Positions 4,109-22,129 of a stretch of 64,000 bases of DNA are shown here, in pieces. The translations under genes were made by a program, and so were the position numbers. How positions within the stretch are numbered: position 1 is the first letter of the stretch; the number at the start of each line of letters is the position of its first letter. A model generated the notes under the pieces. The model worked only from the letters and a program-made list of their open reading frames with translations. It searched no databases and had not been told where the DNA came from. Source of the stretch: Aeoliella sp. Its GTDB lineage: Bacteria > Planctomycetota > Planctomycetia > Pirellulales > Lacipirellulaceae. The stretch spans positions 1,911,537 through 1,975,536 of the forward strand of contig NZ_CBDDFX010000002.1 of the NCBI RefSeq assembly GCF_965227375.1, in the 5' to 3' direction.

Positions 4109-4135
4109 GGCTTCGTGCGATGCAGATAGAGACGT

Positions 4136-5200
4136 TCAGGGACCTGGCAGGCCGGGGCTGGTCGAGTAGGGGCGGGGAAAGTTCGGACGCGAACGGTTGG
4201 AACCAGGCGGGCTGGGAGTCGGCACGTTCGGTGGCCGAGGATACTCGGGCGGCGTGTAACGCTGCCGATTGCTCCTGTGTTCTTCGAGGATCTTGTCCAT
4301 CCTCGCGCGGGCGTCCTCTATCGACTTGCGGTGTTCTTTGAAGGGGTCTTCCACCTCCCAAACCTCGCGGTCGGGTGGGCCAGTTCGAAACTGTTCCGGC
4401 TGAGTTTGGCGGCCTGGCCGATAAGTGTCCTCGAACGTGTCCGGAATCTCGACACGAGGAGGCGTGTAAACAGGCTCCGTGTACGACGAACGCGATTTGG
4501 ACGACGAACTGCTCTCGTTGGCGATGTGGGCGCAGCCACGAATGACCGGGAGAACAAGCAGGAACAGCCACCAAGGCCAACCGTTGCTCGAGCGTTCGGT
4601 CGTAGCCGCTTGGCCCGGTGCAGCGGCCACCGCGTGTTTGCGGGCGGAGTAGCGAAGCAGGGAGTCGAGCCAGTCGGACTCCAGCGCGTATAGCTCAGGT
4701 AGCTCCGTCTTGAGCAGACGAATCATCGCCTGGCCGTGGCGACGGTTGTGTCGATGGCGAAAACTGGCGAGCACTTGCTCTCGAAGCACAGCCACGTCGC
4801 GCGACGGTGAAACCAGAATCTTCTTGAGCACGCTGAAGAAGTCGCCATCAAACCGGCGATCGCTTGCCAAAGCTGGCAACTTTCCGCGACTCTGCAATAC
4901 GACTGTCAGTCGTCTTGCGAGTGCAGCCAACTCGGGGAACTCTTGGACAGGAAGCTGCCGGATACGGCCCAGCAGTTGATCCACCGGGCCAGTGAAGCAA
5001 GCTTGCCGGATCTGCTCCAACTGATCGCGTACCTTCTGCCGTTCTCCAGCCGAGGGAGCGTTGGCCGACTTGGTCTTCTGTTTGGCTTCGAGGCGAAACG
5101 CTTTCGCTCGCGAGCGAACAATATCGCCGCTCTCGTTAATTGGATTGCGAGCAAGTTGCTTGGTCAAATAGTCGACCACTTGCGGCGAGGCGCTACTCAT
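4136..5200 (-). CDS. Hypothetical single-pass membrane protein with proline-rich C-terminal region; likely start at Met30 of the track ORF
   Basis: The start ATG at 5200..5198 overlaps the Hsp70 stop (ATGAGTAG). One hydrophobic helix ([20 protein letters not shown]). The C-terminus is rich in P/S/R ([29 protein letters not shown]). It sits between the Hsp70 gene and the J-like gene. Confidence 0.6.
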
Positions 5201-6938
5201 CGCTCGGCTCCTGGGCGGTGTCGGGATCGATGCCAAGCATCGACAACACTTCCTCCAAAGTGCTGCGCGCCGCTTCCACGGTTTCACGGTCGCCGGTGCT
5301 CATGGCTTGCTCGAACATGTCGATCGCCACCTCGAATTGCTCACGCTGGTAGGGGCTCACTTCGCCCACCATCCGCTCGGCAAAGCGGAGCAGTCGCTGG
5401 TTGGCCATGTCTTCGCGCGGGTAGTACTTCAGGCCCTGCATCTTGGCGACCGCCTCTTCCAACTCCGTGTCGGTCAGATCCGCGGCGTGCTGCGTAACGA
5501 CAGTGCGGAACTTGTTCTCGGTGCTGCCCACGTAGGCTTCCACCTCGAGGATGCCGTTCAGGTCGTAGGTGAAGCGGATGAACACATCCTGCCCCGCCGG
5601 CCCACGTGGTACGCCTGTGACGCGGAGTTCGCCGATCTTCAGGTTGTTTTCGACCTTGCGATTCTCGCCTTGATACACGTCGACCTGCACCTCTTGCTGG
5701 TTCGGCACCATGGTGCTGAAGACGTGCTCCTTCGAGACGGGAATCGTGGTGTTGCGATGGATGATCGGCACGAAGTAACCGGAGCGGACCTGTCCGCCCA
5801 TGTCCTTGGCGGTGTCGATGCCCAACGTGAACGGGCAGACATCGGTCATCACCATGTCGTCCACGGCGCGATTGTCGGCAATGAGCGCCGCCTGCACGGC
5901 CGCACCCATGCAGACCACTTCGTCGGGGTTGTAGGTTGCCTCGGGCTCAGTGCCGAAGTAGTCGCGGACGAAATCGACCAGCGGCAGCATTCGCGTTGCC
6001 CCGCCCACCAGAATCACATCGTCGACCTCGGACGAATCGGTGCGCCCATCGCGAAGTGCTTTTCCGATCGGTCCCGCGATGCGATCGAGCAGCGGCTTGA
6101 CCGCCTTGGAGAAGGTCTCGCGATTGATCTTCACCATCTTGGCCTTCTCGGGCAACGTCCCATCGTCTTCCGGCAGGGTCACAGCGACTTCCGCCTCGTT
6201 GCTTAGTTGCCGTTTGGCGTCCTCGCATTGCTGACGGAGCCTGGCCACGCGGAGCGGCTGTTGCAACTCTGCCAGCTCGAAGTTGATGCCCTGCTGTTTT
6301 AAGATCACCGAGACCAATCGATTGGTGAAGTCCTCGCCGCCCAGGAAGCTCTCGCCAGAAGTGGAGATGATCTCGAGCGTGCCTTCGAACACTTCCATCA
6401 GCGTCACGTCGAAGGTGCCTCCGCCGAGGTCGACAACGATCAGCTTCTTCTCCGCTTGGCGGTCGTGGAAGCCGTAGGTCAGCGCGGCGGCCGTTGGTTC
6501 GTTGATGATGCGGCGGACCTTCAGTCCTGCCAGTTCCCCCGCCACCTTGGTCGCCTTGCGTTGGTTGTCGTTGAAGTACGCCGGCACAGTGATCACCGCA
6601 TCGGTGACTTCCTCGGCAAGGAACTTCTCCGCGTCGCTCTTCAGGGCCTTGAGCACCAGGCTCGAGAGTTCTGGGGCCGAGAATGCTTGCCCGGCGAGTT
6701 CCACACGCGAGTCGCTGCCCATCAGACGCTTGAAGGTCGACGCGCACCGCTCGGGTTGTGTGACGCGCAGTTCGCGGGCTGCCTCGCCTACGAGGACCTG
6801 GCCATCTTCCAGTATGCCAACGACCGACGGCGTGAGCATTCGCCCCAGTGCGTTGGGTATTAATCGCGGTTTGTCGCCCAGGAACACGCCGCAAAGCGAG
6901 TTGGTTGTTCCCAGGTCGATACCGATAATATGAGACAT
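5193..6938 (-). CDS. Hsp70 family chaperone (HscC-like, non-DnaK paralog)
   Basis: [14 protein letters not shown] (phosphate-1 motif), DLGGGTFD (phosphate-2 motif) and [13 protein letters not shown]-like adenosine motif ([14 protein letters not shown]), with a substrate-binding domain. No C-terminal EEVD and a short lid, as in HscC-type Hsp70s. Confidence 0.9.
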
Positions 6939-7127: not shown

Positions 7128-7859
7128 ATGTTGCTCAAGTTTCTCACCTATAACATCCACAAGGGCATTGGCGGCGTGGACCGCAAGTATCGGCTCGAGC
7201 GGATTATGGACGTGCTTCGGCATCACGATCCCGATATCGCCTTGTTGCAGGAGGTGGACGACGGGGTGCCGCGTTCGCGGGGCGATTGTCAGATCGACTT
7301 GCTTCGAGAGGAATTGGGCTACGCCGACAGTGCGTTTCAAGCCAATGTTCGCCTGCGCAGAGGGCACTACGGAAACGCAATTCTCAGTCGGTTCCCGCTC
7401 AGCCATCAGACCGATATCGACTTGACCATTGGGCCCAAGAAGCGAAGACGTGCGTTGGTGGCTCACGCGCGACTCGCGGACCAGAACCATACGCGCACGC
7501 TGGTTGTTGCGAACTTGCATTTGGGACTTGCCGACTTCGAGCGGCGCATGCAACTCCGGAGGCTGCTAAAGCACGATGCTATCGCGCATCACCACTCCAC
7601 GACGCCCATGCTGGTGGGTGGCGACTTCAACGACGTGTGGGGCAGGATGGGCAAGCGGATCATGCACCCAGGCGGATTCCATTCGGCGACTGGCAAGGTT
7701 CGCACGTTCCCCGCCCGACTGCCGCTCCGCGCGCTCGACGCCATTTACTACCGCGGCGACGTGGAACTCGACCATGCGTTCGCGGGGCATACGCAGCTGT
7801 GCCGCGAGGCGTCCGATCACCGCCCGCTTGTCGCTCACCTGCACGTGCAGGTGAGTTGA
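7128..7859 (+). CDS. Endonuclease/exonuclease/phosphatase (EEP) family protein
   Basis: YNIHKG... N-terminus, LLQEVD motif, catalytic GGDFND motif and C-terminal SDHRPL motif, characteristic of the EEP fold. Confidence 0.85.
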   Translation: MLLKFLTYNIHKGIGGVDRKYRLERIMDVLRHHDPDIALLQEVDDGVPRSRGDCQIDLLREELGYADSAFQANVRLRRGHYGNAILSRFPLSHQTDIDLTIGPKKRRRALVAHARLADQNHTRTLVVANLHLGLADFERRMQLRRLLKHDAIAHHHSTTPMLVGGDFNDVWGRMGKRIMHPGGFHSATGKVRTFPARLPLRALDAIYYRGDVELDHAFAGHTQLCREASDHRPLVAHLHVQVS

Positions 7860-7868
7860 GAAGATAGC

Positions 7869-8294
7869 TCAGGCGTTCTCTTGCATCTGCTGGTCGATCC
7901 AGCCTTCCAGTTCCGCCAGGTCGACCGGCGGCACGTCGCACAGATCGGGACGCAATCGCTCCGCCTTGCGATGATACACGTGGTGCACATCCGACTGAGC
8001 CTTGTCGGTGTTCCAGTGAATGAGCACCCGAATGCACTTCTCGAGCGATCCGGGCACGTAGATCTCGTGGCCGCACAGCAGTGGGACATCGCACCAACCA
8101 AGTTGCCGCGCCGCTAGCGCCGGAAACTCCGCATCCAGGTCGACCGTGGTCGTGAAGAAGGCGCTAGCCACGTCCTGCTTGTCGATTTCGTTGTGCCGAA
8201 TGATCAGCGCAAGCAACTCGCGAGTCGCGCGGAGGATTTCCTCGCGATCATTGTTTTCGACGGTAGTAGCGCCTCGTACGCCGCGGCACTGCAT
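7869..8294 (-). CDS. aroH: Chorismate mutase, AroH class
   Basis: [21 protein letters not shown]...[11 protein letters not shown]...RLRPDL aligns along its full length with Bacillus subtilis AroH (MMIRGIRGATTVERDTEEEIL...CIRVMMTVQTD...VLRPDL). Confidence 0.9.
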
Positions 8295-8634
8295 ACAAAA
8301 CCTGGATTGAATAGTGGGATCTTGGGGCCAAAAGACAAGGTGGTCATGTTACCCCAATTCGCCCCGTCTTGATAGCACCTCGCCGGCGGGGAGCCGTGGA
8401 ACGCTGTAACTGTTGCTTGTGCGTAACCGCACATGTGCGACCGTGCCAGGGTGTTTGTTTCGTCCGTTGCGGGGTTCAACACAGAGTGTCTTCGCAAAAA
8501 TCAGAAGGTTCCCTACCGGTTCGTGGATTGTTCCGCTGAGGGTGCAGTTTGGCACGGATGGTGCTTAGAGAGCTTCCAGCCCATCCATTAGTTACTCTCC
8601 GCACACTCTCTACCAACCTTATCGGTGCCTCGAA

Positions 8635-10080
8635 ATGTTTGTTAGATCCTCTAGTTTCACATTCCTCGTCGCCTGCAGTTTGCTGATTGGCTGCAGTTCC
8701 GAACTCCAAGAGCTGGCAAGTTCTTCGGATGCCGACCAGTCGAACACTGCGGCCCCGAAAGTCGAGCAGCCTGCTTCACAGACCGACGCGGAATATCGAG
8801 CAGTTATCGATTCCGCCGACCTGCCGAAGCCGGCAGAGTTGACGGCCGACGACTGGCCCCAGTTTCGGGGCGCGAATCGGGATGCAGTCGTCCAGGGGAG
8901 CACGCGACTAGCACGCACGTGGCCGGCCGAAGGACCTCCCGTGCTGTGGGAAGCCACGGTGGGGCAAGGATACTCAGCGCCCTCGATTGTCGGCGACCGC
9001 GTGTTTTTGAACGACTACGACGAAGACGCCAAAGAATGGCTGGTTCGTTGCTTGTCACTGGAGAGTGGCGACGAGCTTTGGACCTACAAGGTCGCCAAGC
9101 GAATCCGCCCCAACCACTCCATCACGCGTTCCGCTCCGGCGACCGACGGTGGTTTCGTCTTCTCGATCGACCCCAAGTGCGAACTGCACTGCCTTGATGC
9201 GAGAAATGGCAATCTCATCTGGAAAAAGAACCTGCCGCAATTGTACGACAGTCCGATTCCACCCTGGTACAACGGTCAGTGTCCGCTGATCGACGACGAC
9301 AAGCTCGTTCTGGCAACCGGCGGTAAAGCGGTGCTCGTGGCGCTCGACAAGGCAACCGGTGAGCCCATTTGGGAAACGCCTAACTCCGATGAGTATCTAC
9401 TTTCACACTCATCGGTGATGCCGCTCGAAGTCGACGGGCATCGCCAGTACGCCTACCTCACGCTCAAGGGAGCTTTGGGCGTGGATGCCGAGTCGGGCGA
9501 ATTGTTGTGGTCGTTTCCCTGGAAGTTCAACACGGCTGTAGCTCCTGCACCGCTGCCGTTGGGCGAAGGACGCCTGCTTTTGACTAGTGGATACAATGCA
9601 CAGACGGTAATTTGCCAGGTGAAACTGGAAGACGGCAAATGGACTGCGTCGGAGAGTGTTGCATTCCAATCTCCCCCACGAGGTTGGAACTCGGAGGTTC
9701 ACACTCCGATTGTTCATGGCGGACATATCTACGGAGTTGGCAAGACCAAGCGGGGGATGTGGACCTGCCTGGACTTGGATGGCAACGAACTGTGGACTAG
9801 CGGTCGTGCCGCGACGTTCGGCATGGGCGGTTACGTTCTGGCCGATGGGATGTTCTTCGCGCTCGACGGGAAAAGCGGCACACTGCGACTCATAGACGCT
9901 GAGGCCGACGAGTATCGTCAGTTGGCCGAAGCAAAGCTGCTGTCTGGTCCGGACGTATGGACCCCACCTGTTATTTCAGGCGGAAAGCTGTTGGTGCGCG
10001 ACTTGGGCAAACTGCTGTGCCTTGATGTTGCGGATCCCAACGCTCCGCTGGCCGCATCTTCCAACTCCAGCGGCCAATAA
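8635..10080 (+). CDS. PQQ-like beta-propeller repeat lipoprotein (BamB/PQQ-enzyme-repeat family)
   Basis: Signal peptide with lipobox (LLIGCSS). Repeated W-containing blades (LWEATVGQGYSAPSIVGDRVFL, LWTYKV, LIWKKNL, PIWETP, LLWSFP, ELWTSG) typical of PQQ-like beta-propellers. Confidence 0.8.
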   Translation: MFVRSSSFTFLVACSLLIGCSSELQELASSSDADQSNTAAPKVEQPASQTDAEYRAVIDSADLPKPAELTADDWPQFRGANRDAVVQGSTRLARTWPAEGPPVLWEATVGQGYSAPSIVGDRVFLNDYDEDAKEWLVRCLSLESGDELWTYKVAKRIRPNHSITRSAPATDGGFVFSIDPKCELHCLDARNGNLIWKKNLPQLYDSPIPPWYNGQCPLIDDDKLVLATGGKAVLVALDKATGEPIWETPNSDEYLLSHSSVMPLEVDGHRQYAYLTLKGALGVDAESGELLWSFPWKFNTAVAPAPLPLGEGRLLLTSGYNAQTVICQVKLEDGKWTASESVAFQSPPRGWNSEVHTPIVHGGHIYGVGKTKRGMWTCLDLDGNELWTSGRAATFGMGGYVLADGMFFALDGKSGTLRLIDAEADEYRQLAEAKLLSGPDVWTPPVISGGKLLVRDLGKLLCLDVADPNAPLAASSNSSGQ

Positions 10081-10081
10081 A

Positions 10082-10933
10082 ATGACAACCAAAACGATGA
10101 ATGTCGCTCACGTGAAGACGCTCACTGGCCCATCCGCTGAGCCGTTGTTCGATCTGCGGCTGGTTGCGGTGGCCGTTGACCCGAATGATCTGGTCTACAT
10201 GCTCGGCGACGATCGAGTCCGATGCTTCACTTCCGAAGGTGAGCCGGTGCGGAATTTCCAACTCGACGCGTTGGGATGGTCGCTCTTGGCCGAAGAAGAC
10301 AAGCTGTGGATCGGTTTCGATGGGAAGGTCCGATCGTACTCGCCCGATGGAAAGCCGTTGACGATCATCGCAGACGCCCGATTGGGGCGTATCACATCGA
10401 TCGCCTCGGCAGGCGAAAGCTTGGTGCTTGCCGACTCAACTAACCGGGCAGTCCATCGCTACTCGCGCGACGGCAAGTACCTTGGCGACATGGGGGCGGA
10501 GGCCAACACGCGAGGATTCATGATCCCCAACGGCATTCTCGACCTGGCCCGCGATCCCAGCACCGGTTCGGTCGTCGTTGCCCATCCGCAGAAGCATCGA
10601 GTCGAGCGATACGACGCCGCGGGTCCGTTGCTCTCCAAGTGGGGACGTTTTGGCATGCATGAACCGGGCGACTTTGGTGGGTGCTGCAACCCGACGAACA
10701 TTGCCGTGGCCCAGGAGGGGATGATTGCGGTGAGCGAGAAAGCCCCACCGCGCATCAAGCTGTACGACGGCGACGGGAACTTAGAACTAGTTGTCGACGA
10801 GGAGGTCTTCGATCCGAACACGAAGAACATCGATCTGGCGTTCGACTCGAAGAATCGGTTGTATGCTACCGATCCGCTTCGCAAGGTGGTCGAAGTGTTC
10901 GAACTCCAAGAGTCCGAGGAGTCGGAGCCATGA
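10082..10933 (+). CDS. NHL-repeat (six-bladed beta-propeller) protein
   Basis: Repeated modules of the form ...DGKYLGDMG..., ...PNGILDLARDPSTGSVVVA..., ...PTNIAVAQEGMIAVSE..., ...RLYATDPLRKVVEVF resemble NHL repeats. The start ATG at 10082 directly follows the previous stop, and the gene's own stop overlaps the next start (ATGA at 10930). Confidence 0.7.
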   Translation: MTTKTMNVAHVKTLTGPSAEPLFDLRLVAVAVDPNDLVYMLGDDRVRCFTSEGEPVRNFQLDALGWSLLAEEDKLWIGFDGKVRSYSPDGKPLTIIADARLGRITSIASAGESLVLADSTNRAVHRYSRDGKYLGDMGAEANTRGFMIPNGILDLARDPSTGSVVVAHPQKHRVERYDAAGPLLSKWGRFGMHEPGDFGGCCNPTNIAVAQEGMIAVSEKAPPRIKLYDGDGNLELVVDEEVFDPNTKNIDLAFDSKNRLYATDPLRKVVEVFELQESEESEP

Positions 10934-11547
10934 ACGAGCAGAATCGACGAGACTTTCTTCGGCACTCCGGTCGGGCGGCTTGCGCTATTGCGATCGGCAG
11001 GGTGGGCTTCGAACTAGGCCGGAGAGCCTGCGCCGAAGACGCATGGGTGATTGCGCCCAATCAGTGCATCAACATTCGCCTGGGAGTCACCGGCGCGGTG
11101 AACGTGTGCGACGCATGCGCGACTAGCTGTGTGCTGCCACTGTCGGCTGTGCGTGCGGTGAACGATCACTCGGCTTGCGGACGGTGCTGTATCTGCCCGG
11201 CTTACTACGACGTGCTGAGTCCCACCGGCTCGGACGGACTGCCGACCAAAAAGCTCTGCCCACGTGATGCGATTACGCGGACGCCGATCGGCGAGGTCGA
11301 TCCTTATGATCCACTGAATAACTTCTACGAATACACGATCGATGAAGAGAAGTGCAATGGTTGCGGTCAGTGCGTGATGGAGTGCAAGGACCCCGCGGGT
11401 CTGGGCTCGATCCGCTTGGAGGTGCGCAACGATCTGTGCCTGCGCTGCAACCGCTGCAGCATCGCGGAAGTCTGTCCCGAAGATGCGTATCTACGCGCCG
11501 GCCCCGAACCTCGCCCGTCGCAGCAGTTGGAGGGGGGCCACGGATGA
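10930..11547 (+). CDS. Tat-exported 4Fe-4S ferredoxin (NapG/MauM-like periplasmic ferredoxin)
   Basis: MNEQNRRDFLRHSG twin-arginine leader. Multiple Cys clusters (CDACATSC, CGRCCICP, CNGCGQCVMEC, CLRCNRCSIAEVCP) typical of poly-[4Fe-4S] ferredoxins. ATGA overlap with both upstream and downstream genes. Confidence 0.8.
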   Translation: MNEQNRRDFLRHSGRAACAIAIGRVGFELGRRACAEDAWVIAPNQCINIRLGVTGAVNVCDACATSCVLPLSAVRAVNDHSACGRCCICPAYYDVLSPTGSDGLPTKKLCPRDAITRTPIGEVDPYDPLNNFYEYTIDEEKCNGCGQCVMECKDPAGLGSIRLEVRNDLCLRCNRCSIAEVCPEDAYLRAGPEPRPSQQLEGGHG

Positions 11548-12587
11548 TTGTGCCGCGCTGTGCCTCTGGAGTGCACATCGCGAGCCGTCTCGTGGCGGTG
11601 GTGCTGGTTGTGGTGCTTGGCACCAGTTCGCCGCAGTCGGGGCTCGCACAGGAATACGAACGCCCTGTGGCCAACGCGCCGCAGGCGGAAGATATCGGCG
11701 GTGGTTACGAAGTCCCTGCCGTGCAGCGGACGCCACCGCGCTCGTTGGCGATGCATGTACTCGACATCGTGCTGCTCGTGGCGGGGATGGCGGTTATCGC
11801 GTGGGTCGTTCGCCGCGGACGCCGCCGCTGGGTGATCACGTTGGTGACGCTACTGTCGCTGGCGTACTTTGGATTTTACCGCCAGGGATGTGTCTGTCCG
11901 ATCGGAGCTACCCAGAACGTGGCTGCGTCGTTGGCCGATCCGACGTCGGCCGTGCCACTGGTGGTGCTGGCGTTCTTTCTGCTGCCGCTAATCGCAGCGC
12001 TGCTGGTGGGGCGAGTTTTTTGTGGTGGTGTCTGCCCGTTGGGTGCAATTCAAGACGTGGTGCTGCTGCGCCCGATACAAACGCCCCGTACGTTTGATCG
12101 CTGGGCTGGGGCCATCAAGTATCTCTACTTAGGTGCAGCGATCTGGTTTGCCGTGAAAGTGGCCGCCCAGCGCGACTTCATCATCTGTCGTTTCGATCCA
12201 TTCGTGGGCTTCTTCCGGCTCAACGGTACCGCGTGGATGCTTGGTTTTGGTGTGGCACTGCTGGCGATCGGTACTGTTGTCGGGCGCCCGTACTGCCGTT
12301 ATCTCTGCCCGTATGGCGGCCTACTGGCGATCGTATCGCGGTTTGCCTTCTGGCCCGTGAAGATCACGCCCGACGAGGAACTCGACTGCGGCCTCTGCGT
12401 CGACAGCTGCCCGTATGGTGCGATCAAGGACCTCAGGGCCGAGCCCAGCAAGTGCCTGGCGTGCGCGCGGTGCTTCGCCCATTGCCCGCGACAACAGCTT
12501 GCTTGGGGCGAGATCGAGCTAGTGCAGCTCGAAGAAATGGTTGCCGAGGCGAAGGCGAGCCGCCAGGTACACGAGGGAGACGCATGA
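11544..12587 (+). CDS. NapH/MauN-like integral membrane polyferredoxin
   Basis: Several transmembrane helices with CxxCP-type motifs (GCVCPIG, CGGVCPLG, YCRYLCPYGG) plus C-terminal CxxCxxC...CP ferredoxin motifs (CGLCVDSCPYG, CLACARCFAHCP): the hallmark architecture of the NapH/MauN/NosH family. The start is chosen at the MIVPRC Met, which overlaps the upstream stop. Confidence 0.8.
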   Translation: MIVPRCASGVHIASRLVAVVLVVVLGTSSPQSGLAQEYERPVANAPQAEDIGGGYEVPAVQRTPPRSLAMHVLDIVLLVAGMAVIAWVVRRGRRRWVITLVTLLSLAYFGFYRQGCVCPIGATQNVAASLADPTSAVPLVVLAFFLLPLIAALLVGRVFCGGVCPLGAIQDVVLLRPIQTPRTFDRWAGAIKYLYLGAAIWFAVKVAAQRDFIICRFDPFVGFFRLNGTAWMLGFGVALLAIGTVVGRPYCRYLCPYGGLLAIVSRFAFWPVKITPDEELDCGLCVDSCPYGAIKDLRAEPSKCLACARCFAHCPRQQLAWGEIELVQLEEMVAEAKASRQVHEGDA

Positions 12588-15070
12588 TGGCCCTCGACTT
12601 AAAATCCCGGTTCATGCAGATCGCCACGATTGCATCATGCCTTCTACTGGTGGGCAGCTTAGTGTTGTTGCTGGTCGATCACGTGCAGTGGCTCTCGAAC
12701 TACTCGGCCGCCGAGAATGCCCTGCAGGAAGCAGAAGCCGCCGCACAACTCGATTCAGCCGCCAACGACCGGTTCGAGCAACTGGTCGAAACGCAAACCG
12801 CGGATTCGCTGAGACTGAAGCGTCGCGAGCGAGTGCTTGGTATCGCTGCTCTGGTTGCAGCCGGTGCGTTTTTGCTTCTCGTGCGTCGTCCCGCGCCGGC
12901 GAAGCCTCCCCTGCCCCGCACGTTGGCGGAGTGCATGCCCCAGCGCAGCGGCGAAACCACACCCGCTGAGATTCCCGACTCCGCGGGCGAACCTTCCACA
13001 CAACCGTCTATTGATTTGCAGCCACTGCGCGAGATCGTTGCACGTGAAGGTCGAGAGTCGCACCGGCTCATTCCGCTGCTGCTAGCCATCCAAGCCGAAT
13101 ACCGCTACCTGCCGCAAGCGGCACTGGACGAACTTTGCCGACTGACGGAGATCACTCCCGCGCAGCTGGCCGGCGTGGCTTCGTTCTACACGAAATTCCG
13201 CACCAAGCCGTGCGGCAAGCATCTCGTGCAAATGTGTCGCGGAACGGCGTGTCATGTCGCGGGCGCGGATCGCGTGTTGGAGGAAATGCGGCGTGCCTTC
13301 GGAATCGCTCCAGGGCGTGACACGGATCCTACCGGGCAGGCCACCGTTAATTCCGTTGGCTGCTTGGGCTGCTGCAGCCTGGCGCCGGCTGTGCAGGTGG
13401 ACGACAAGATTCTCGCCAACGTGAAAGTGGAAGACTTGCCGGAGATTGTCGATTATTGTCACGACAAACCCAAAAAACGCAGCGGCTATCTGCCGTTCCG
13501 CAAGCCGACGGAGAGCCATTCGTTGGAGGCAACTTCGGCAGAGATGCTACTGGATTCAGAGCAGTCGGTCGCTCGTATTGTAACCGGCGCGTGGGAGACT
13601 ACCAAAGCGGAAACACTCGAAGAGTACGAGCGCCAAGGCGGCTTCGCTGCGTTGGCCAAGTGCTTGCAGCACACGCCGGAGGAGATCCTCGACGAGATTG
13701 ATCACAGCGGATTGCGTGGCCGCGGCGGCGGGGGATTTCCAGCGGCACAAAAGTGGCGTCTGGTGAGCCTGCAGAGCGGCGAGAAGTTCGTCGTCGCTAA
13801 TGGCGACGAAGGCGATCCTGGCGCGTTCATGGACCGTTCGATCATGGAGACCGCGCCCGCAAGCGTTCTGGAGGGAATGCTCGTCGCCGCGTACGCAGTG
13901 GGTGCTTCGCGGGGCGTGGTGTACGTGCGGAATGAGTATCCTTTGGCGGTGCGGCGGATGCGCGAGACGGTAGATCGCATGCGCGAGAAGGGCTACCTGG
14001 GCGACGGCATCCTGGGGAGCCGTTTCGCGTTCGCCATCGATGTGGTGGAAGGCGCCGGGGCTTTCATCTGTGGCGAGGAGACGGCGCTGCTGCAGTCGGT
14101 GATGGGCCATCGCGGGACGCCGCGCCGACGTCCCCCCTTCCCTGCTGAGTCGGGTTTGTGGGAACGTCCGACACTGGTCAACAACGTCGAGACCTTAGCG
14201 TGCGTGCCATGGATCGTCTGCCATGGCAGTGAGGCGTTTGCTACATTCGGCACCGCAGGCAGCCCCGGCACCAAGGTCTTCTCGCTCGCCGGTAAGGTTC
14301 AGCGGGGCGGACTGGTCGAAGCCCCCATGGGAACGACGATTCGCGAGTTGGTCGAGCAGTATGGAGGTGGAGTTGCCCCTGGCCGGCGATTCAAAGCCGT
14401 GCAGATTGGCGGCCCTTCGGGCGGCTGTCTGCCAGCCGAGTTGGCCGATACGCCCGTCGACTACGAGTCACTTCGCGAACTGAATGCCATCATGGGGTCG
14501 GGTGGGCTGGTGGTGCTGGACGACACCGATTGCATGGTGGACGTGGCGCGCTACTTCCTCGAGTTCACGCAGCACGAGTCCTGTGGGCATTGCACGTTCT
14601 GCCGGATTGGCACGCGAAAGCTGCTCGACCTGCTGGAGAAGCTGTGTGCTGGCAAGGCCAAGAGGCGGGACCTGGAGGAGATCGAAACGCTCGCCCACAG
14701 CGTGGCGCAGGGAAGCTTGTGTGGCCTTGGCAAGACGGCGCCCAATCCGGTGCTCACGACGCTTCGGTACTTCAGGGATGAATACGAAGCACACCTCGAA
14801 GGACGTTGTCCAGCCGGACGATGCAAAGCGCTGATTGAGTACCGAGTGACGCAGGACTGTGTAGGGTGCACATTGTGCGCTCAACACTGCCCAGTTGCCG
14901 CGATCGAGCCCACGCCCTATCGGCAGCACTGGATCGATACCGAGATGTGCACGTGCTGCGATGCTTGTCGCACCACGTGTCCGGAAAATGCCATCGATAC
15001 CTTCAGCACGGCCAAACCGCCTTCGAATACAGTCACCCCTAACCTGCGAAAGCAACCACAGTTGGTGTGA
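12584..15070 (+). CDS. Fused NuoE-like (thioredoxin-like 2Fe-2S) + NuoF-like (FMN/NADH-binding 51-kDa) + C-terminal 2x[4Fe-4S] ferredoxin, with N-terminal transmembrane anchor
   Basis: N-terminal hydrophobic helix (IATIASCLLLVGSLVLLLV). NuoE-like region (CRGTACHVAGA...VGCLGCCSLAPAVQVD). NuoF-like region (GLRGRGGGGFPAAQKW, ANGDEGDPGAF, ESCGHCTFCRIGT). C-terminal CxxCxxCxxxCP x2. ATGATG at 12584 overlaps the upstream stop. Confidence 0.85.
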   Translation: MMALDLKSRFMQIATIASCLLLVGSLVLLLVDHVQWLSNYSAAENALQEAEAAAQLDSAANDRFEQLVETQTADSLRLKRRERVLGIAALVAAGAFLLLVRRPAPAKPPLPRTLAECMPQRSGETTPAEIPDSAGEPSTQPSIDLQPLREIVAREGRESHRLIPLLLAIQAEYRYLPQAALDELCRLTEITPAQLAGVASFYTKFRTKPCGKHLVQMCRGTACHVAGADRVLEEMRRAFGIAPGRDTDPTGQATVNSVGCLGCCSLAPAVQVDDKILANVKVEDLPEIVDYCHDKPKKRSGYLPFRKPTESHSLEATSAEMLLDSEQSVARIVTGAWETTKAETLEEYERQGGFAALAKCLQHTPEEILDEIDHSGLRGRGGGGFPAAQKWRLVSLQSGEKFVVANGDEGDPGAFMDRSIMETAPASVLEGMLVAAYAVGASRGVVYVRNEYPLAVRRMRETVDRMREKGYLGDGILGSRFAFAIDVVEGAGAFICGEETALLQSVMGHRGTPRRRPPFPAESGLWERPTLVNNVETLACVPWIVCHGSEAFATFGTAGSPGTKVFSLAGKVQRGGLVEAPMGTTIRELVEQYGGGVAPGRRFKAVQIGGPSGGCLPAELADTPVDYESLRELNAIMGSGGLVVLDDTDCMVDVARYFLEFTQHESCGHCTFCRIGTRKLLDLLEKLCAGKAKRRDLEEIETLAHSVAQGSLCGLGKTAPNPVLTTLRYFRDEYEAHLEGRCPAGRCKALIEYRVTQDCVGCTLCAQHCPVAAIEPTPYRQHWIDTEMCTCCDACRTTCPENAIDTFSTAKPPSNTVTPNLRKQPQLV

Positions 15071-16647
15071 TGGTCCAAGTTTGGATAGACAACGTGAGCA
15101 TCGATGTGCCGCCGGAGTCCACGGTGCTGCAAGCGGCGCGCAAGTTGGGAGTTGATGTGCCGGCCATGTGCGCGCTAGCCGATCACGAGCCCAACACCTC
15201 GTGCATGTGCTGCCTGGTGCGGGTCGATGGTCGGCAGGACTTCGTGCCATCTTGCGCCACCAAGGTACGCGATGGAATGCGCGTGGAGTCGGAAACACGG
15301 GAAGTGCACGACCTGCGCAAGACTGGCATCGAATTGCTGCTCGCCGATCACGCTGGTGATTGCCACGCGCCCTGCCAGAACACGTGCCCCGCGAAGATGG
15401 ACATCCCCAACATGCTTCGGCTAGTGGCCGAGGGAGACTACCGCGCGGCGCTCGCCACCGTGAAACGCGACATTGCCCTGCCATCAATCCTCGGGCGCGT
15501 CTGCCCGGAAGTGTGCGAACAGGCGTGTCGGCGCGGGCAGCACGACAGCCCGGCAGCAATCTGTAAGCTTAAACGATTCGTCGCCGATCGCGATCTCGAG
15601 TCGCCCAACCCCTACGAGCCCGAACTTGCCCCTGACTCGGGCAAGCGCGTTGCAGTAGTCGGCGCCGGCCCAACAGGACTCACGGCCGTCTATCACTTGC
15701 GTCTGCAGGGGCATCGATGCACACTGATCGACCTCGCGGACAACCCCGGAGGTCGGCTCCGCAACGAGTTTTCCAGCGAACTATCCGACGACACCCTGCA
15801 AGCCGAAGCCAATACCGTGCTTTCGCTAGGAGTGGACTGCCGATGGAACGAGAGCCTCGACTCGGTGGATGCACTTAGATACCTGATGAGCGAGTACGAC
15901 GCGGTGCTGCTGGCCATAGGACGCGCGGCGCTGTCGTGCGGTGCACTGGCGGACGTCGCCATGACGAAGAGCGGTGTGAAGATCGAAGCGAGCCGTCGGA
16001 TGACGTCGCACGAAGGGCTGTTTGCCGCAGGCAACGCGGTGCGGCCGTACAAGCTGGTGGTGCAGTCGGTTGCCGAAGGGAAGCTGGCCGCCGAGTGCAT
16101 CGATGGGTGGCTACGCGGCGCACCTCCGCCGGATCGCCGTCACGCCTACGAGACGCGCCTGGCCCGGCTCACCAACCAGGAGTTGTGTGACTTCTGCGAT
16201 GGTGCGGTCCCCACGGCCCGTGTGGATAGTCGCTTGCTCGAGGAAGCCTCCGAGGAGGCTGCCCGTAGCGAGGCCGAGCGATGCCTGGAGTGCGATTGCC
16301 GCGCATTGGCCAGTTGTCTGCTGCATCACTATGCGGCCATGTACGATTGCGACGCGCATCGCTACCGAGGAGAAGGGCGTCGATTCGAAGGCCGATTGGT
16401 GGGCGAGCGAGTGACGCTCGAGCAGGGCAAGTGCATCTTGTGCGGCATCTGTGTGCAACTCGCTGCCGAAACGCCCGACGCGGCGGGGCTCGCGGTGATG
16501 CACCGCGGGACCGCCACTCGTTTGTCGCCGCCGCCCGGTAGTTCGCTGGACGAAGCCCTCGGCAGCGCCGCCTTGCGCTGTGCCGAAGCCTGTCCCACCG
16601 GAGCCATCGTTTTGCATGAGACGACCTCTGCGTCTTCTTTGCGCTGA
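15067..16647 (+). CDS. 2Fe-2S (NuoG N-terminal-like) + GltD-like FAD/NAD(P)H oxidoreductase + C-terminal Fe-S domain
   Basis: N-terminus VWIDNVSIDVPP...CALADHEPNTSCMCCLV is NuoG/FdhA-type 2Fe-2S. The GltD-like N-terminal domain (CPAKMDIPNM...RVCPEVCEQAC), dinucleotide-binding motif (VAVVGAGPTGLTAV) and C-terminal AGNAV...VVQSVAEGKLAA are typical of the glutamate synthase small-subunit family. Extra Cys-rich C-terminal domain. The start overlaps the upstream stop (GTGATG). Confidence 0.85.
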   Translation: MMVQVWIDNVSIDVPPESTVLQAARKLGVDVPAMCALADHEPNTSCMCCLVRVDGRQDFVPSCATKVRDGMRVESETREVHDLRKTGIELLLADHAGDCHAPCQNTCPAKMDIPNMLRLVAEGDYRAALATVKRDIALPSILGRVCPEVCEQACRRGQHDSPAAICKLKRFVADRDLESPNPYEPELAPDSGKRVAVVGAGPTGLTAVYHLRLQGHRCTLIDLADNPGGRLRNEFSSELSDDTLQAEANTVLSLGVDCRWNESLDSVDALRYLMSEYDAVLLAIGRAALSCGALADVAMTKSGVKIEASRRMTSHEGLFAAGNAVRPYKLVVQSVAEGKLAAECIDGWLRGAPPPDRRHAYETRLARLTNQELCDFCDGAVPTARVDSRLLEEASEEAARSEAERCLECDCRALASCLLHHYAAMYDCDAHRYRGEGRRFEGRLVGERVTLEQGKCILCGICVQLAAETPDAAGLAVMHRGTATRLSPPPGSSLDEALGSAALRCAEACPTGAIVLHETTSASSLR

Positions 16648-18952: not shown

Positions 18953-20599
18953 CTACTCTTGTGCCTCCGCCGGATTCCTAAGCTCCTCGTCTATGGGTAG
19001 CTCTTCGTCGTCGGGCGCGGGAGCATCGATTGGTTCGCCTTCGGGCGGATTCTCCGGCTGCAAGGCAACAGGAATTGGCTGCGTTAAGTAGGGAGAAGGC
19101 CACCCACCGCCGAGAGCACGGTAGATGGCAACCACACCTTGGGCCACTTCGCCCTTGGCGGCCGCGGCCGAGAGTTCCTGCTGAGTCTTGGTGTTCTGCA
19201 CATTGAACACGCGGTTAAAGTCCCTCTCATCGCCAATTTCGTACTTCTCCGTGATCAAGCGGTTGGTGATGTCTGCAGCCTCCGCGGCCTCGAGTTGCAA
19301 CTTGAACTGCTCTTGCGACTTCAAAAACTGAACAATGGCATTTTCGGCTTCTAAGTTCGCCAGCAGCACCGTCTCGCGGTATGCGAAGAGCAACTCCTGG
19401 AACCTCGCGTCTTGCAGGCGGACATTATTGAGAAGGCGACCGTAGTTCAAGATGTTCCATTCGAGCGATGGCCCTACGGATCCGAATCCCGAACCGCTAC
19501 GGAACAAGTCCTTAAATTGGCCGGCGCTCCGTCCGACGGTCCCCGTCAACGTGATGTGGGGATAGAGTTCCGACTCCGCGACTCCGATCAACGCACTTTG
19601 CGCTGCGAGTTGCCGCTCCGAACGACGCACGTCGGGGCGTTGCAAAAGTGTTGCGGCTGGAATACCGAGGACGATGTCCGGCTCTACGTCTGGTATCTTC
19701 CCCTCTCCGAGAGTCTCCTCCAGGTCCTCAGGGGGGATTCCCAGAAGGATGCAGAGTTGATTCTCGGTTTGTCGCAAGAAGATCTCTAACTGGGGAATCA
19801 AGGCTTGAGTTTGCACCAAGCTCGACTTCGCCTGTTGGACGTCTACGTCACTCGACTCCCCGGCTTCGAGTCGGAATACCGTGAGGTCGTAGGTCTTTCG
19901 CTGGTTCTCGACGTTCTGTTTGGCGAGTTCCAGGCGTACCTGCAAGGTGCGGATGTCGATGTACGTTGCCGCGACGTCGGCGATTAGCGTGACCACCACG
20001 TCGCCATAGTCGTAGATCGAGGCATCCAGGTCCGCGTCGGCAGCTTCGATGGCTCGTCGGTAGCGGCCCCAGAAATCGATCTCCCACGCCAGGCCAAACG
20101 AGCCTCGCCAAACGCTGAAGTGGCGGTCGCCGATTCCCGTCCTCAGATTGTGCGAGTACGCTGCCGCGAAGTCTTGCTGCTGAGGGAACAGTTCTCCCAC
20201 TGTAATAGCGCGAATCGCTCGCGCCTGCATGATCCTCGCCCCGGCTTGCCGCACGGTGAGATTCTGCCCGTAGGCATCGGTGATCAGTTGATTGAGCACC
20301 GGGTCGTTGAACGTGGTCCACCAAGCGGCGGCTTCCACCGGGTCGTCAATCACCCGTTTGTCGTCGGCGTCGATCCAGTCCTGTGCTACCGGCACAGCGG
20401 GAGTACAGTAATTGGGGCCCACTTTGCAGCCGTTGGCAAACCACTGCCGCGGACTTGTGCATCCCTGCAGAAGCAGGACAACGCAAGCAACCACCGCCAC
20501 GGCTTGAGCTCGCCCGCCGCAGGGGAATTGGCCTCTGTGAGATGCCCTGGTCATTTGCATTGAATATCCGCTACTTGCAGCACGGTCGGTAAACCCCAT
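18953..20599 (-). CDS. Efflux transporter outer membrane factor lipoprotein (NodT/TolC family)
   Basis: Signal peptide with lipobox (LLLQGCTS). Two repeated alpha-helical/beta-barrel halves with characteristic coiled-coil segments of outer membrane factor proteins. Divergent to the RND adaptor gene. Confidence 0.85.
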   Translation of the reverse strand: MGFTDRAASSGYSMQMTRASHRGQFPCGGRAQAVAVVACVVLLLQGCTSPRQWFANGCKVGPNYCTPAVPVAQDWIDADDKRVIDDPVEAAAWWTTFNDPVLNQLITDAYGQNLTVRQAGARIMQARAIRAITVGELFPQQQDFAAAYSHNLRTGIGDRHFSVWRGSFGLAWEIDFWGRYRRAIEAADADLDASIYDYGDVVVTLIADVAATYIDIRTLQVRLELAKQNVENQRKTYDLTVFRLEAGESSDVDVQQAKSSLVQTQALIPQLEIFLRQTENQLCILLGIPPEDLEETLGEGKIPDVEPDIVLGIPAATLLQRPDVRRSERQLAAQSALIGVAESELYPHITLTGTVGRSAGQFKDLFRSGSGFGSVGPSLEWNILNYGRLLNNVRLQDARFQELLFAYRETVLLANLEAENAIVQFLKSQEQFKLQLEAAEAADITNRLITEKYEIGDERDFNRVFNVQNTKTQQELSAAAAKGEVAQGVVAIYRALGGGWPSPYLTQPIPVALQPENPPEGEPIDAPAPDDEELPIDEELRNPAEAQE

Positions 20600-20875
20600 T
20601 TTTTCCTTCTCATCGTTGATTCTGCTTCCAGTCCTACAATTTGTTCTGCTAGACTAGAAAGGCTTAACATCCCGGCGGATCCACGCCCGGCTAGAGCTTT
20701 CCTGACCATTAAAAGCGGTAAAGTCTACCGGGAGGCGCGCCAGCGAGCCGGCACCTCGCCGCATCCGTCGGGGTTTAAGTGGTCCCCAGGCCACGTGAGC
20801 ATGACCAGCTTGCGGTTGTCTGCAACCACTCCCACCTTACATTCCCTCCCTTACCGGCCGCCCCGGCCCTGACGC

Positions 20876-22120
20876 ATGACGACGTCCTCCCATAGATCCA
20901 CGCACTTGGCCGGCCTGCTGCTCAGGCTTGCGCTTCCGTGCGTGATTCTTGCGGCAGGATGGTACGGGTTCACCCTCCTGTCTTCAGGAGTGGAAAAGGA
21001 ACCCGAGCCAGAGAAGAAGCGCCAGGTGTTACGGACCAGGGTCCAGGACTTGGAAGTTAGCGACTACCCGGTCGTCATCAGGACGAACGCAGTGGTGCAA
21101 GCGCACAACGAAGTGACGCTCTCCTCTCAAGTGACAGGCAGAGTGGTGCGGGTGAGCCCATCGTTCGAGGCAGGAGCCTACTTCGACGAGGGGGAAGTGC
21201 TTGTCGAAATCGATCCGCGTGACTTTGAGAACGCCCTGTCCATTGCAAAATCGGAGCTGTCGGCCGCGAACTCAACGCTCACGCTAGCTAAGTTGGTCGA
21301 GGAGCGCAAGCTGAAGCTCGTCAAATCGAATGCAGTGTCTCAAGGCGAGGTGGACGCCGCCACGGCGAGCCGCGAGCAAGCCGAAGCCAACGTCGAACTA
21401 GCGGCGAGTCGCGTTGAACAAGCCAAGCTGCAGCTTCAGCGAACCAAGATAAAGGCCCCGTTTGATGGACGGGTGAATACGAAGCTGATCGGACTGGGCC
21501 AAGTGGCGGGAGCGAACAATCCTCTCGGCGAAGTATTTGCCATCGACTATGTGGAAGTGAGGCTTCCCATATCGGGCCAGCAGAGGGACTTTCTTGAGTT
21601 GCCCGAGTTCGCCGACGACGAGCCACTCGAAGTGACGCTGCGAGATGGAATACGCCAAGCGAGCGACACCATCTGGAAAGGCAGGATTGTGCGCACCGAG
21701 GGCGTGCTTGACGAGAATTCTCGCGATCTGTTTGCAATCGCCCGCGTCGACGATCCGTTTGGACGCAAGACGGATATGCCGCCGCTGCGAATCGGCCAGC
21801 CAGTGATCGCTTCGATTCAAGGCACAACCCTCAAGGACGTCATGGCGCTTCCTCGAGCAGCTGTTCGCCAACTGGACCGTATTGTGCTGGTCGACCCCAA
21901 GGATCAGACATTGCGGCCGATGAGTGTACAGGCCGTGTGGTCCGACGCCGAGCACGTGGTTGTGAGGGCGTCTGCCATTCCGCGCGGCATGTGGCTGGCG
22001 ACCACGACCTTGGCCTATTCACCGGAGGGCGCAAAGGTCGAGATCATTCCCGAGCCTGGTGCAAGCGAGGCGATTGCCGAGACGAACGCCAAAGGCGATG
22101 ACCAGAAAGCCACAAACTAA
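20876..22120 (+). CDS. Efflux RND transporter periplasmic adaptor subunit (membrane fusion protein)
   Basis: N-terminal transmembrane anchor, coiled-coil hairpin (ELSAANSTLTLAKLVEERKLKL...VELAASRVEQAKLQLQRTKIKAPFDG) and a barrel-sandwich/lipoyl-like motif (KAPFDGRVN), typical of HlyD/AcrA-family adaptors. Confidence 0.85.
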   Translation: MTTSSHRSTHLAGLLLRLALPCVILAAGWYGFTLLSSGVEKEPEPEKKRQVLRTRVQDLEVSDYPVVIRTNAVVQAHNEVTLSSQVTGRVVRVSPSFEAGAYFDEGEVLVEIDPRDFENALSIAKSELSAANSTLTLAKLVEERKLKLVKSNAVSQGEVDAATASREQAEANVELAASRVEQAKLQLQRTKIKAPFDGRVNTKLIGLGQVAGANNPLGEVFAIDYVEVRLPISGQQRDFLELPEFADDEPLEVTLRDGIRQASDTIWKGRIVRTEGVLDENSRDLFAIARVDDPFGRKTDMPPLRIGQPVIASIQGTTLKDVMALPRAAVRQLDRIVLVDPKDQTLRPMSVQAVWSDAEHVVVRASAIPRGMWLATTTLAYSPEGAKVEIIPEPGASEAIAETNAKGDDQKATN

Positions 22121-22129
22121 ACACTTCTT

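Follow-up and report, generated by a model that had tools for sequence, protein, structure and literature searches.

A block of six genes at positions 8635–16647 of a 64,000-nucleotide (nt) stretch of DNA from Aeoliella sp. (Pirellulales, Planctomycetota) was analysed; this stretch is referred to as the window, and coordinates are window positions unless another locus is named. Its G1 and G4 proteins show 100% identity to Aeoliella sp. proteins at NCBI. The block consists of six closely spaced open reading frames (ORFs) on the plus strand, designated G1 to G6, and looks like a NapH-type electron conduit system of so far undescribed composition. The system is widespread and coherent, and its gene order recurs in at least two bacterial phyla (Planctomycetota and Acidobacteriota). 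The original prediction for this region had placed six genes in a given order and assigned domains to each, and all six ORFs were found on the plus strand with the claimed content:

8635–10080, plus strand: G1, 481 residues, PQQ_2 propeller with lipobox LIGC
10082–10933, plus strand: G2, 283 residues, NHL/SGL-like propeller
10930–11547, plus strand: G3, 205 residues, twin-arginine signal NRRDFL and ferredoxin motifs
11544–12587, plus strand: G4, 347 residues, Fer4_5, NapH/NosR-like membrane protein
12584–15070, plus strand: G5, 828 residues, transmembrane (TM) hairpin, NuoE-like, NuoF-like and C-terminal 2x[4Fe-4S] domains
15067–16647, plus strand: G6, 526 residues, NuoG-type 2Fe-2S domain, GltD-like part and Nqo3-type ferredoxin domain

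Four of the junctions had been described as overlaps of start and stop codons and the sequences read as claimed, with ATGA at G2/G3 (10930) and G3/G4 (11544), ATGATG at G4/G5 (12584) and GTGATG at G5/G6 (15067). The stop of G1 (10080) is separated from the ATG of G2 (10082) by one base.

The distribution of the block was determined by a genome scan of one genome per species (GTDB) using an alignment of G4 homologues as the query, which gave at least 584 confirmed relatives. The best 80 of these were used as the locus set, and gene order was obtained by tblastn with all six window proteins. All six genes were present in the same order and on the same strand in 58 of the 80 loci, consistent with the six-gene operon that had been proposed. 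Start/stop overlaps are frequent in operons and alone prove little; it is the conservation of order in these 58 loci that indicates that the block is more than a chance association. Most of the other 22 loci were interrupted by contig ends, and the true exceptions were four Acidobacteriota loci with G1–G4 only, two loci without a detectable G6 and one without G1. The hosts included Pirellulales, Planctomycetales, Phycisphaerae, a Brocadiaceae metagenome-assembled genome (MAG), many Bryobacterales/Solibacterales, one Verrucomicrobiia MAG and one Bacteroidetes MAG. Median identities to the window proteins over the 80 loci were 52% for G1, 37% for G2, 56% for G3, 57% for G4, 54% for G5 and 43% for G6.

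The four Acidobacteriota loci that contain G1–G4 without G5 and G6 were L073, L074, L075 and L077, where the region after G4 lies at approximately 10900–12000. The G4 of L074 is lengthened to 470 residues, with no domain assigned to the C-terminal ~130 residues, while in L075 G4 is followed by a 216-residue protein with a two-cluster ferredoxin domain. The neighbourhood of the block was examined by clustering the ORFs found within 5 kb on either side at the 80 loci. The sole recurring neighbours were extra PQQ_2 paralogues, which occurred at 24 of the 80 loci in variable position and on either strand. No molybdoenzyme, hydrogenase, cytochrome or reductive dehalogenase was present among these conserved neighbours, and genes for periplasmic nitrate reductase, methylamine dehydrogenase or N2O reductase were found neither in the window flanks nor in this neighbour set. 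Two outcomes would have spoken against the original prediction, a lack of conserved synteny and a known catalytic subunit close to the block, and neither was observed.

The G5 protein was divided into four parts, which are given with the residues and nucleotides that they span:

12620–12883, plus strand: predicted TM hairpin, residues 13–31 and 82–100, from hydropathy and the positive-inside rule
13028–13456, plus strand: NuoE/BfuC-like [2Fe-2S] domain, residues 149–291
13589–14803, plus strand: NuoF/BfuB-like domain for flavin mononucleotide (FMN) and [4Fe-4S], residues 336–740
14846–14998, plus strand: C-terminal 2x[4Fe-4S] domain, residues 755–805

Pfam and NCBIfam scans of G5 gave a NuoF match at 8.5e-136, with PF01512 at 2.4e-44 and PF10589 at 2e-32. 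The FMN and NADH motifs, GRGGGGFP and GAGAFICGEETAL, were intact and the cluster motif CGHCTFC was present. The best PDB matches were the B subunits of NfnABC (9BOV, 4e-188), Nfn-Bfu (9N5U) and StnABC (8OH5), and the alignment with NfnB and StnB extended over approximately 550 residues (E ~1e-181 to 1e-188) and took in the C-terminal 2x[4Fe-4S] domain. Matches to the non-bifurcating NuoF, FdsB and HoxF were far weaker than those to the Bfu B subunits, HoxF (5XF9) giving 1.6e-83 and 285 bits compared to 630 bits. The NuoE-like domain contains the motifs C218x4C223 and C260x3C264, and its best PDB matches were HydC (7P5H_C, 1.3e-30) and NfnC (9N5U_C, 4.2e-30). As the NuoF part matches B subunits and the NuoE part matches C subunits, G5 was assigned as a C–B fusion. 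The C-terminal domain was matched by Fer4_21 over residues 757–804, with the motifs C759xxC762xxC765xxxC769P and C789xxC792xxC795xxxC799P. The NuoE-like and NuoF-like domains are approximately 45 residues apart, too close to fit a second thioredoxin-like domain, and the one that is present resembles C subunits much more than the N-termini of B subunits (7P5H_C at 1.3e-30 versus 7P5H_B at 2.4e-4); this spacing suggests that G5 does not possess a separate thioredoxin-like BfuB N-terminal domain (cluster B2 or a Zn site).

The hydrophobic helices of G5 are followed by a basic stretch, which predicts a hairpin anchor that leaves the enzyme part on the cytoplasmic side. Two helices were found ahead of the NuoE-like domain in 49 of 70 G5 orthologues and one helix in a further 15, in agreement with the TM-anchored NuoE–NuoF fusion that had been predicted. 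The hairpin is absent at locus L078, where the reading frame of a NapH-like protein runs on into the NuoE-like [2Fe-2S] domain (2508–4364) and the NuoF part is carried by the gene at 4361–6166. This in-frame fusion is a strong argument for a physical partnership of G4 and G5.

The Pfam matches of G6 were Fer2_4, Fer4_20, Pyr_redox_2 and Fer4_Nqo3, and the best PDB matches were the A subunits of 9BOV, 9N5U and 8OH5. Two stretches were matched, and the better-scoring one reaches no further than the N-terminal ~290 residues of the 963–1178-residue A chains; at 526 residues G6 does not contain the C-terminal molybdopterin-like domain of NfnA and StnC (BfuA total ~960–1180 residues). The cytoplasmic flavoprotein of NuoE, NuoF, NuoG-N-terminal and GltD type that had been claimed was recovered in G5 and G6, and the PDB matches relate it to the Nfn and Stn enzymes. 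Alignment with long-form orthologues revealed a clean deletion of approximately 145 residues in the window G6 that includes the GGGNTAMD motif, with the break near residue 288 (nt ~15925), while GAGPTG and FAAGNAV are retained.

The orthologues of G6 occur in three forms, for which loci L005 (13661–15754) and L041 (13959–14657) were compared with the window. The long forms (~655–737 residues) contain both the flavin adenine dinucleotide (FAD) and NADPH motifs and match PRK12814 over the full length. The mid forms (~512–550 residues), found in the window and in other Pirellulales, have lost the NAD(P)H subdomain, and the short forms (~210–257 residues) are plain HoxU/NuoG-N-terminal iron-sulfur (Fe-S) proteins with a HoxU match at 1.6e-30. 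Short G6 proteins without GltD were present in several Phycisphaerae and Planctomycetales loci. Within this conserved operon the NADPH site appears to have been lost in steps. Because this site is absent from the window G6 and from the GltD-less lineages it is dispensable to the function of the block, and since the NAD(P)H subdomain of G6 is lost, NADH at G5 is the only clear nucleotide site here. The NAD(P)H oxidation of the original prediction could consequently be retained for NADH, for which the motifs are present in G5, but NADPH is not a conserved feature and the window G6 is without the Rossmann subdomain. In the same way, the GltD-type Fe-S/FAD part ascribed to G6 is present but its usual NAD(P)H-binding subdomain is missing.

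The G3 protein begins MNEQNRRDFL, with a twin-arginine signal from residue 1 to approximately residue 36, and the RR motif was found in 76 of 79 orthologues. Exactly 16 cysteines are conserved in at least 99% of the orthologues, which suffices for four [4Fe-4S] clusters. G3 was matched by Fer4 families in Pfam and by no NapG or MauM model in NCBIfam at E<=0.01, where only generic ferredoxin matches were obtained (best 4.4e-5, 23 bits). G4 was matched in two stretches by PF12801 (Fer4_5) at 3.9e-14, and its scores were below the NapH/MauN cut-offs (TIGR02163, 50.3 versus 213 bits; PRK09477, 44.5 versus 234 bits) and below the NosR cut-off in NCBIfam (50 versus 1000 bits). As these scores miss the family thresholds, G3 and G4 are NapGH-like in design and are not members of the NapG and NapH families. 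The NapG/NapH-like pair that had been named is thus upheld in its architecture, by the twin-arginine translocation (Tat) signal, the 16 cysteines, the Fer4_5 match and the CX3CP motifs, but not in family membership.

An alignment of 18 G4 homologues contained 14 conserved cysteines, of which 12 were invariant and two were conserved in at least 90%. Two invariant CX3CP motifs are formed by C160xxxC164P and C251xxxC255P, and the additional invariant cysteines C116, C118 and C215 lie in loops placed on the outer face by a simple hydropathy and positive-inside reading. The C-terminal ferredoxin domain, predicted to be cytoplasmic, contains cysteines 282, 285, 289, 304, 307, 310 and 314, of which five are invariant and C310 and C314 are those conserved in at least 90%; its first ferredoxin motif has three cysteines, not four. 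Invariant cysteines are therefore found on both predicted faces of the membrane. The N-terminus of G4 is a probable signal peptide or anchor and is followed by a segment of approximately 40 residues (residues 26–67, nt 11619–11744) that is strongly conserved across phyla, with the consensus EYxRPVxxAPQPEDIGxGYxxPxVQR. There is no counterpart to this segment in the matched NapH and NosR models. From the predicted topology it should be periplasmic, and it might be a docking site for G3.

G1 was matched by PF13360 (PQQ_2) at 3.6e-26 and has a signal with the lipobox LIGC at residues 1–20, by which it is a predicted lipoprotein in the Aeoliella lineage. The AlphaFold model is an eight-bladed propeller (pLDDT 84) and the nearest PDB folds were BamB, tetrathionate hydrolase and the alcohol dehydrogenases that use pyrroloquinoline quinone (PQQ). 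Identity across phyla is 52–85%, with many invariant polar residues in the inter-blade loops, and the invariant loop motifs include RIRPNHxITR, DPKCxxHC, WNSEVHTP and GKxxRG. Four of the six conserved cysteines of G1 occupy the equivalent 'xCLD' position in different blades and, from this placement, look structural. G1 was not recognised as BamB (TIGR03300, 45 versus 285 bits), so that the fold is shared and the family membership is not, and it was likewise rejected as a PQQ-dependent dehydrogenase (TIGR03075, 30 versus 480 bits).

G2 gave a weak SGL/NHL match and a model of a six-bladed NHL-type propeller (pLDDT 93.3), with the NHL domains of TRIM2, TRIM3 and Thin as the closest PDB folds. 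An alignment of 30 orthologues revealed an invariant vicinal cysteine pair within GCCNPT (residues 201–202, nt 10682–10687), an invariant KHRVE motif and only one invariant histidine. None of these 30 orthologues has a signal peptide, and all begin at the propeller. Fold searches with both propellers returned generic propeller neighbours only, and no known dehydrogenase cofactor motif was found in G1 or G2 with Pfam, NCBIfam or the alignments. The naming of G2 as 'sugar lactone lactonase' in some sources raised the lactonase-type (clade III) N2O reductase as a candidate, which was ruled out: those enzymes are relatives of NosZ from other phyla with different neighbours, neither G1 nor G2 has a NosZ match in Pfam or NCBIfam, and a single histidine is invariant in G2.

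A G2 profile search of 1.8 billion representative proteins gave relatives of three kinds, all of them in the operon context of the block. At locus L081 (3975–6176, P0365) a 733-residue gene joins a Sec-signal G1 to G2 in an otherwise normal operon of G3, G4, G5 and a short G6. The homologues P0390 and P0392 have an N-terminal signal-anchor helix, and P0392 and P0394 have G2 fused to a PhnD-like solute-binding domain. In the sister clade this PhnD-like domain (PF12974; L078 801–1766, L082 1563–3446, L083 8001–9608) is either a separate gene product, encoded between G2 and G3, or a C-terminal extension of G2, and the G2 of L082 (1563–3446) also has an N-terminal membrane anchor. The domain is absent from the 80 main loci, and neither a specific subfamily nor a close solved relative was found for it. 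On the basis of the Sec-signal fusion, the signal-anchored homologues and the solute-binding-domain fusions G2 is probably extracytoplasmic. Of the two periplasmic propellers in the original prediction, G1 has its own export signal; G2 has no signal peptide, and its location follows from the fused and anchored homologues. G2 is probably co-exported with G3, which has the Tat signal, by analogy with the hydrogenase small and large subunits and PaoA, which are precedents for Tat co-export. The ATGA coupling of G2 to G3 fits such co-export.

NapH-like proteins have been described as modular transmembrane conduits for periplasmic oxidoreductases, usually with a flavinylated FMN domain, and their partners include the beta-propeller enzymes ExaA and NirS (Meheust et al., 2021; PMC8238504). 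The block resembles the NapG/NapH pair (also MauM/MauN and NosG/NosH) in the Tat signal and 16 cysteines of G3, in the Fer4_5 match, CX3CP motifs and ferredoxin domain of G4, and in the adjacent, translationally coupled G3 and G4 genes. It differs in the N-terminal signal or anchor, the ~40-residue periplasmic segment and the cysteines C116, C118 and C215 of G4, and in having no NapA, NosZ or MauB partner. The electron partner within the block is an NADH-binding flavoprotein, whereas that of NapGH, so far as known, is the quinone pool. With NosR, PceC/RdhC and the other NapH-like flavinylated systems (PMC8238504) the block shares the use of a Fer4_5 Fe-S protein as a modular membrane conduit that links the cytoplasmic side to an extracytoplasmic oxidoreductase. 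In contrast to these systems, G4 has no FMN-binding domain and the block has no ApbE gene; a Tat polyferredoxin takes the place of the outer carrier, an NADH flavoprotein is the explicit partner in the cytoplasm, and the propeller families are uncharacterised.

The closest relatives of G5 and G6 are NfnABC from C. saccharolyticus (9BOV) and T. sibiricus (9N5U) and StnABC from S. ovata (8OH5). In G5 the C and B subunits of these enzymes are fused behind a TM hairpin, G6 is without the ~650-residue molybdopterin-like domain of NfnA/StnC, and the window G6 is also without the NAD(P)H subdomain. In addition, one operon encodes them together with membrane and exported proteins, and the hosts are neither fermenting anaerobes nor acetogens. 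The HoxFU diaphorase of NAD-reducing [NiFe] hydrogenases is similar in its NuoE–NuoF fusion and small NuoG-N-terminal-type Fe-S subunit, but G5 has an extra C-terminal two-cluster domain and a membrane anchor, and there are no hydrogenase subunits at the 80 loci. A survey of Bfu enzymes lists the membrane-bound variants Mbh-Bfu and Nuo-Bfu and 17 clades of unknown function, and a NapH-linked type does not occur in the passages searched (PMC9304861). Full-text searches of the literature gave no description of this gene combination. The set is unusual in its membrane-tethered Bfu/HoxFU-type NADH module, its Tat polyferredoxin in place of a flavin domain, its signal-less NHL propeller and its decaying NADPH site.

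The interpretation that we favour, at a confidence a little short of even, is that the six genes encode one membrane-spanning complex for the NADH-driven export of electrons to an extracytoplasmic reductase composed of the two propellers. NADH would be oxidised at the FMN of G5, tethered to the membrane by its N-terminal hairpin, and the Fe-S clusters of G5 and G6 would relay the electrons to G4, which would receive them at its cytoplasmic ferredoxin domain. The cysteine-ligated centres on both faces of G4 would carry them across the membrane to the Tat-exported four-cluster ferredoxin G3, from which they would reach G2, acting together with the exported propeller G1. The signal-less G2 would fold in the cytoplasm and be exported with G3 by Tat 'hitch-hiking', and its vicinal Cys-Cys pair is the likeliest redox-active site. 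At approximately −320 mV NADH can reduce most periplasmic acceptors, and the membrane potential favours the outward movement of electrons. The analysis shows the domains, the cofactor-binding motifs, the Tat and Sec signals, the membrane anchor of G5, the conserved synteny and the two fusions in relatives (G4 to NuoE and G1 to G2), whereas we infer the order of electron transfer, its outward direction, the Tat co-export of G2 and the Cys-Cys pair as catalytic centre. The more specific proposal, of a respiratory or redox complex of a type so far undescribed in which a membrane-tethered Bfu/HoxFU-type NADH dehydrogenase, an Fe-S-only conduit and a Tat polyferredoxin carrying a signal-less G2 serve a new class of periplasmic reductase formed by the Cys-Cys pair and a cofactor-less G1, with a substrate so far linked to no known enzyme family, is possible but doubtful. 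For the substrate there is no more than a lead, towards oxidised sulfur compounds or other oxyanions: it is compatible with the likeness of G1 to tetrathionate hydrolase, with the thiol chemistry that the Cys-Cys pair of G2 suggests and with the solute-binding domain of the sister clade, none of which is strong.

Several observations weigh against outward, NADH-driven export. No cofactor or substrate site was identified in G1 or G2, and the best structural neighbours of both propellers (BamB and the TRIM NHL domains) are non-enzymatic scaffolds. The C-terminal two-cluster domain of G5 is typical of bifurcating enzymes, which hints at a three-substrate reaction, and since the four Acidobacteriota loci keep G1–G4 without G5 and G6, NADH is not the universal partner. 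The L081 fusion of G1 to G2 is a single MAG gene that could be genuine or an artefact of sequencing or assembly, and the outward direction of electron flow is putative. To our knowledge a transmembrane electron route has not been established for any member of the NapH-type family.

Electrons could instead flow inwards, with G1 and G2 oxidising a low-potential periplasmic donor and the electrons passing via G3 and G4 to reduce NAD+ at G5/G6. In lineages with a full GltD part NADP+ and/or ferredoxin would be reduced as well, and inward flow would build membrane potential; the complex would then be a periplasmic dehydrogenase that is coupled to the reduction of pyridine nucleotides. The PhnD-like domain of the sister clade belongs to a family with phosphite- and phosphonate-binding members, and these ligands are donors of very low potential. 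Modules of the Bfu and NuoEF types can run in either direction (PMC9304861), and oxidases have been proposed alongside reductases as partners of NapH-like systems (PMC8238504). However, only very low-potential donors could reduce NAD+, G1 and G2 have none of the known dehydrogenase cofactor motifs, and the solute-binding domain is absent from the main 80 loci and has no specific subfamily. Many of the hosts are also ordinary aerobic heterotrophs, and inward flow was judged unlikely.

Bifurcation or confurcation by a membrane enzyme resembling Nfn and Stn, in which the G4/G3 conduit would replace soluble ferredoxin, appears improbable. In such an enzyme the oxidation of NADPH at G6 would drive both the reduction of NAD+ at G5 and the reduction of the conduit, so that very low-potential electrons would become available in the periplasm. 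Among PDB structures G5 and G6 match subunits B, C and A of NfnABC and StnABC best, and the long-form G6 orthologues retain the FAD and NADPH motifs. G5 has also retained, at its C-terminus, the 2x[4Fe-4S] domain (clusters B3 and B4) that distinguishes BfuB from the non-bifurcating homologues NuoF, HoxF and FdsB, in which it is missing (PMC11829005). This has to be set against the window G6, which is without the NAD(P)H subdomain, and the several Phycisphaerae and Planctomycetales G6 proteins without GltD, which indicate that the NADPH site is not essential. The separate BfuB N-terminal domain also appears to be missing from G5, given the 45-residue spacing, and sequence alone gives no basis for judging bifurcation.

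A further alternative to NADH-driven export is that G3 and G4 are a NapGH-type quinol dehydrogenase serving the periplasmic proteins and that G5 and G6 form a separate soluble or peripheral enzyme which is merely co-transcribed. The architecture of G3 and G4 parallels that of NapG and NapH, regarded as a quinol dehydrogenase (PMC8238504), and the four loci with G1–G4 and no G5 or G6 are as this alternative would have it. It is nevertheless quite improbable, as G5 is membrane-anchored in most orthologues, the NuoE-like domain of L078 is fused to a NapH-like protein and G5 and G6 follow G4 in the same order at 58 of the 80 loci, while G3 and G4 are far under the NapG and NapH thresholds and no quinone-site motif was identified. 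Finally, a role for the propellers as scaffolds, with G1 as a BamB-like platform and G2 as a thiol-based reductase supplying reducing power for the repair or maturation of envelope proteins, a purpose analogous to that of DsbD or MsrPQ, agrees with the BamB matches of G1, the protein- and RNA-binding NHL domains matched by G2 and the invariant vicinal cysteines of G2, but is very improbable because such high conservation of the G1 loops across phyla (52% median identity) would more usually mark an active site or a fixed interface between several subunits, and because the envelope thiol systems that are known work through thiol-disulfide cascades or haem rather than Fe-S chains.

If NADH-driven export through this complex is true, cytoplasmic NADH would be spent in a dedicated manner on extracytoplasmic chemistry, bypassing the quinone pool. 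A Bfu-type flavoprotein, a class so far studied in anaerobes, would then be part of a membrane complex in largely aerobic heterotrophs, and a redox function would be assigned to two propeller families so far uncharacterised. Among the hosts of the block are lineages abundant in soil, peat, sediment and the sea (Pirellulales, Phycisphaerae and Bryobacterales/Solibacterales). With the cytoplasmic and periplasmic partners encoded in one operon, the block is also a test case for the passage of electrons across the membrane by NosR, NapH, PceC and CcoG.

The genes that flank the block are unrelated to it. A promoter and terminator scan gave patterns not above chance level, and there was no Rfam match in the window at gathering thresholds, nor in positions 7800–8700 at E<=1. 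The upstream edge is a 340-bp gap (8295–8634) followed by a divergent chorismate mutase gene (7869–8294, minus strand) of type I (PF07736 at 2.9e-48), with Hsp70-like and endonuclease/phosphatase-family genes also on the opposite strand. Behind the Hsp70-family gene (5193–6938, minus strand) come two large ORFs in the same orientation that have no Pfam match (4136–5287 and 2453–4108), and these three genes (2453–6938) may be a non-canonical Hsp70 system. At the downstream edge a 313-bp gap is followed by a permease gene, and a PfkB kinase is also present on this side. Positions 18953–25297 encode an outer-membrane efflux protein (minus strand) and, on the plus strand, an HlyD-type adaptor and an AcrB-type RND pump; next after the pump genes is an ORF of 1841 residues (25359–30884, minus strand).

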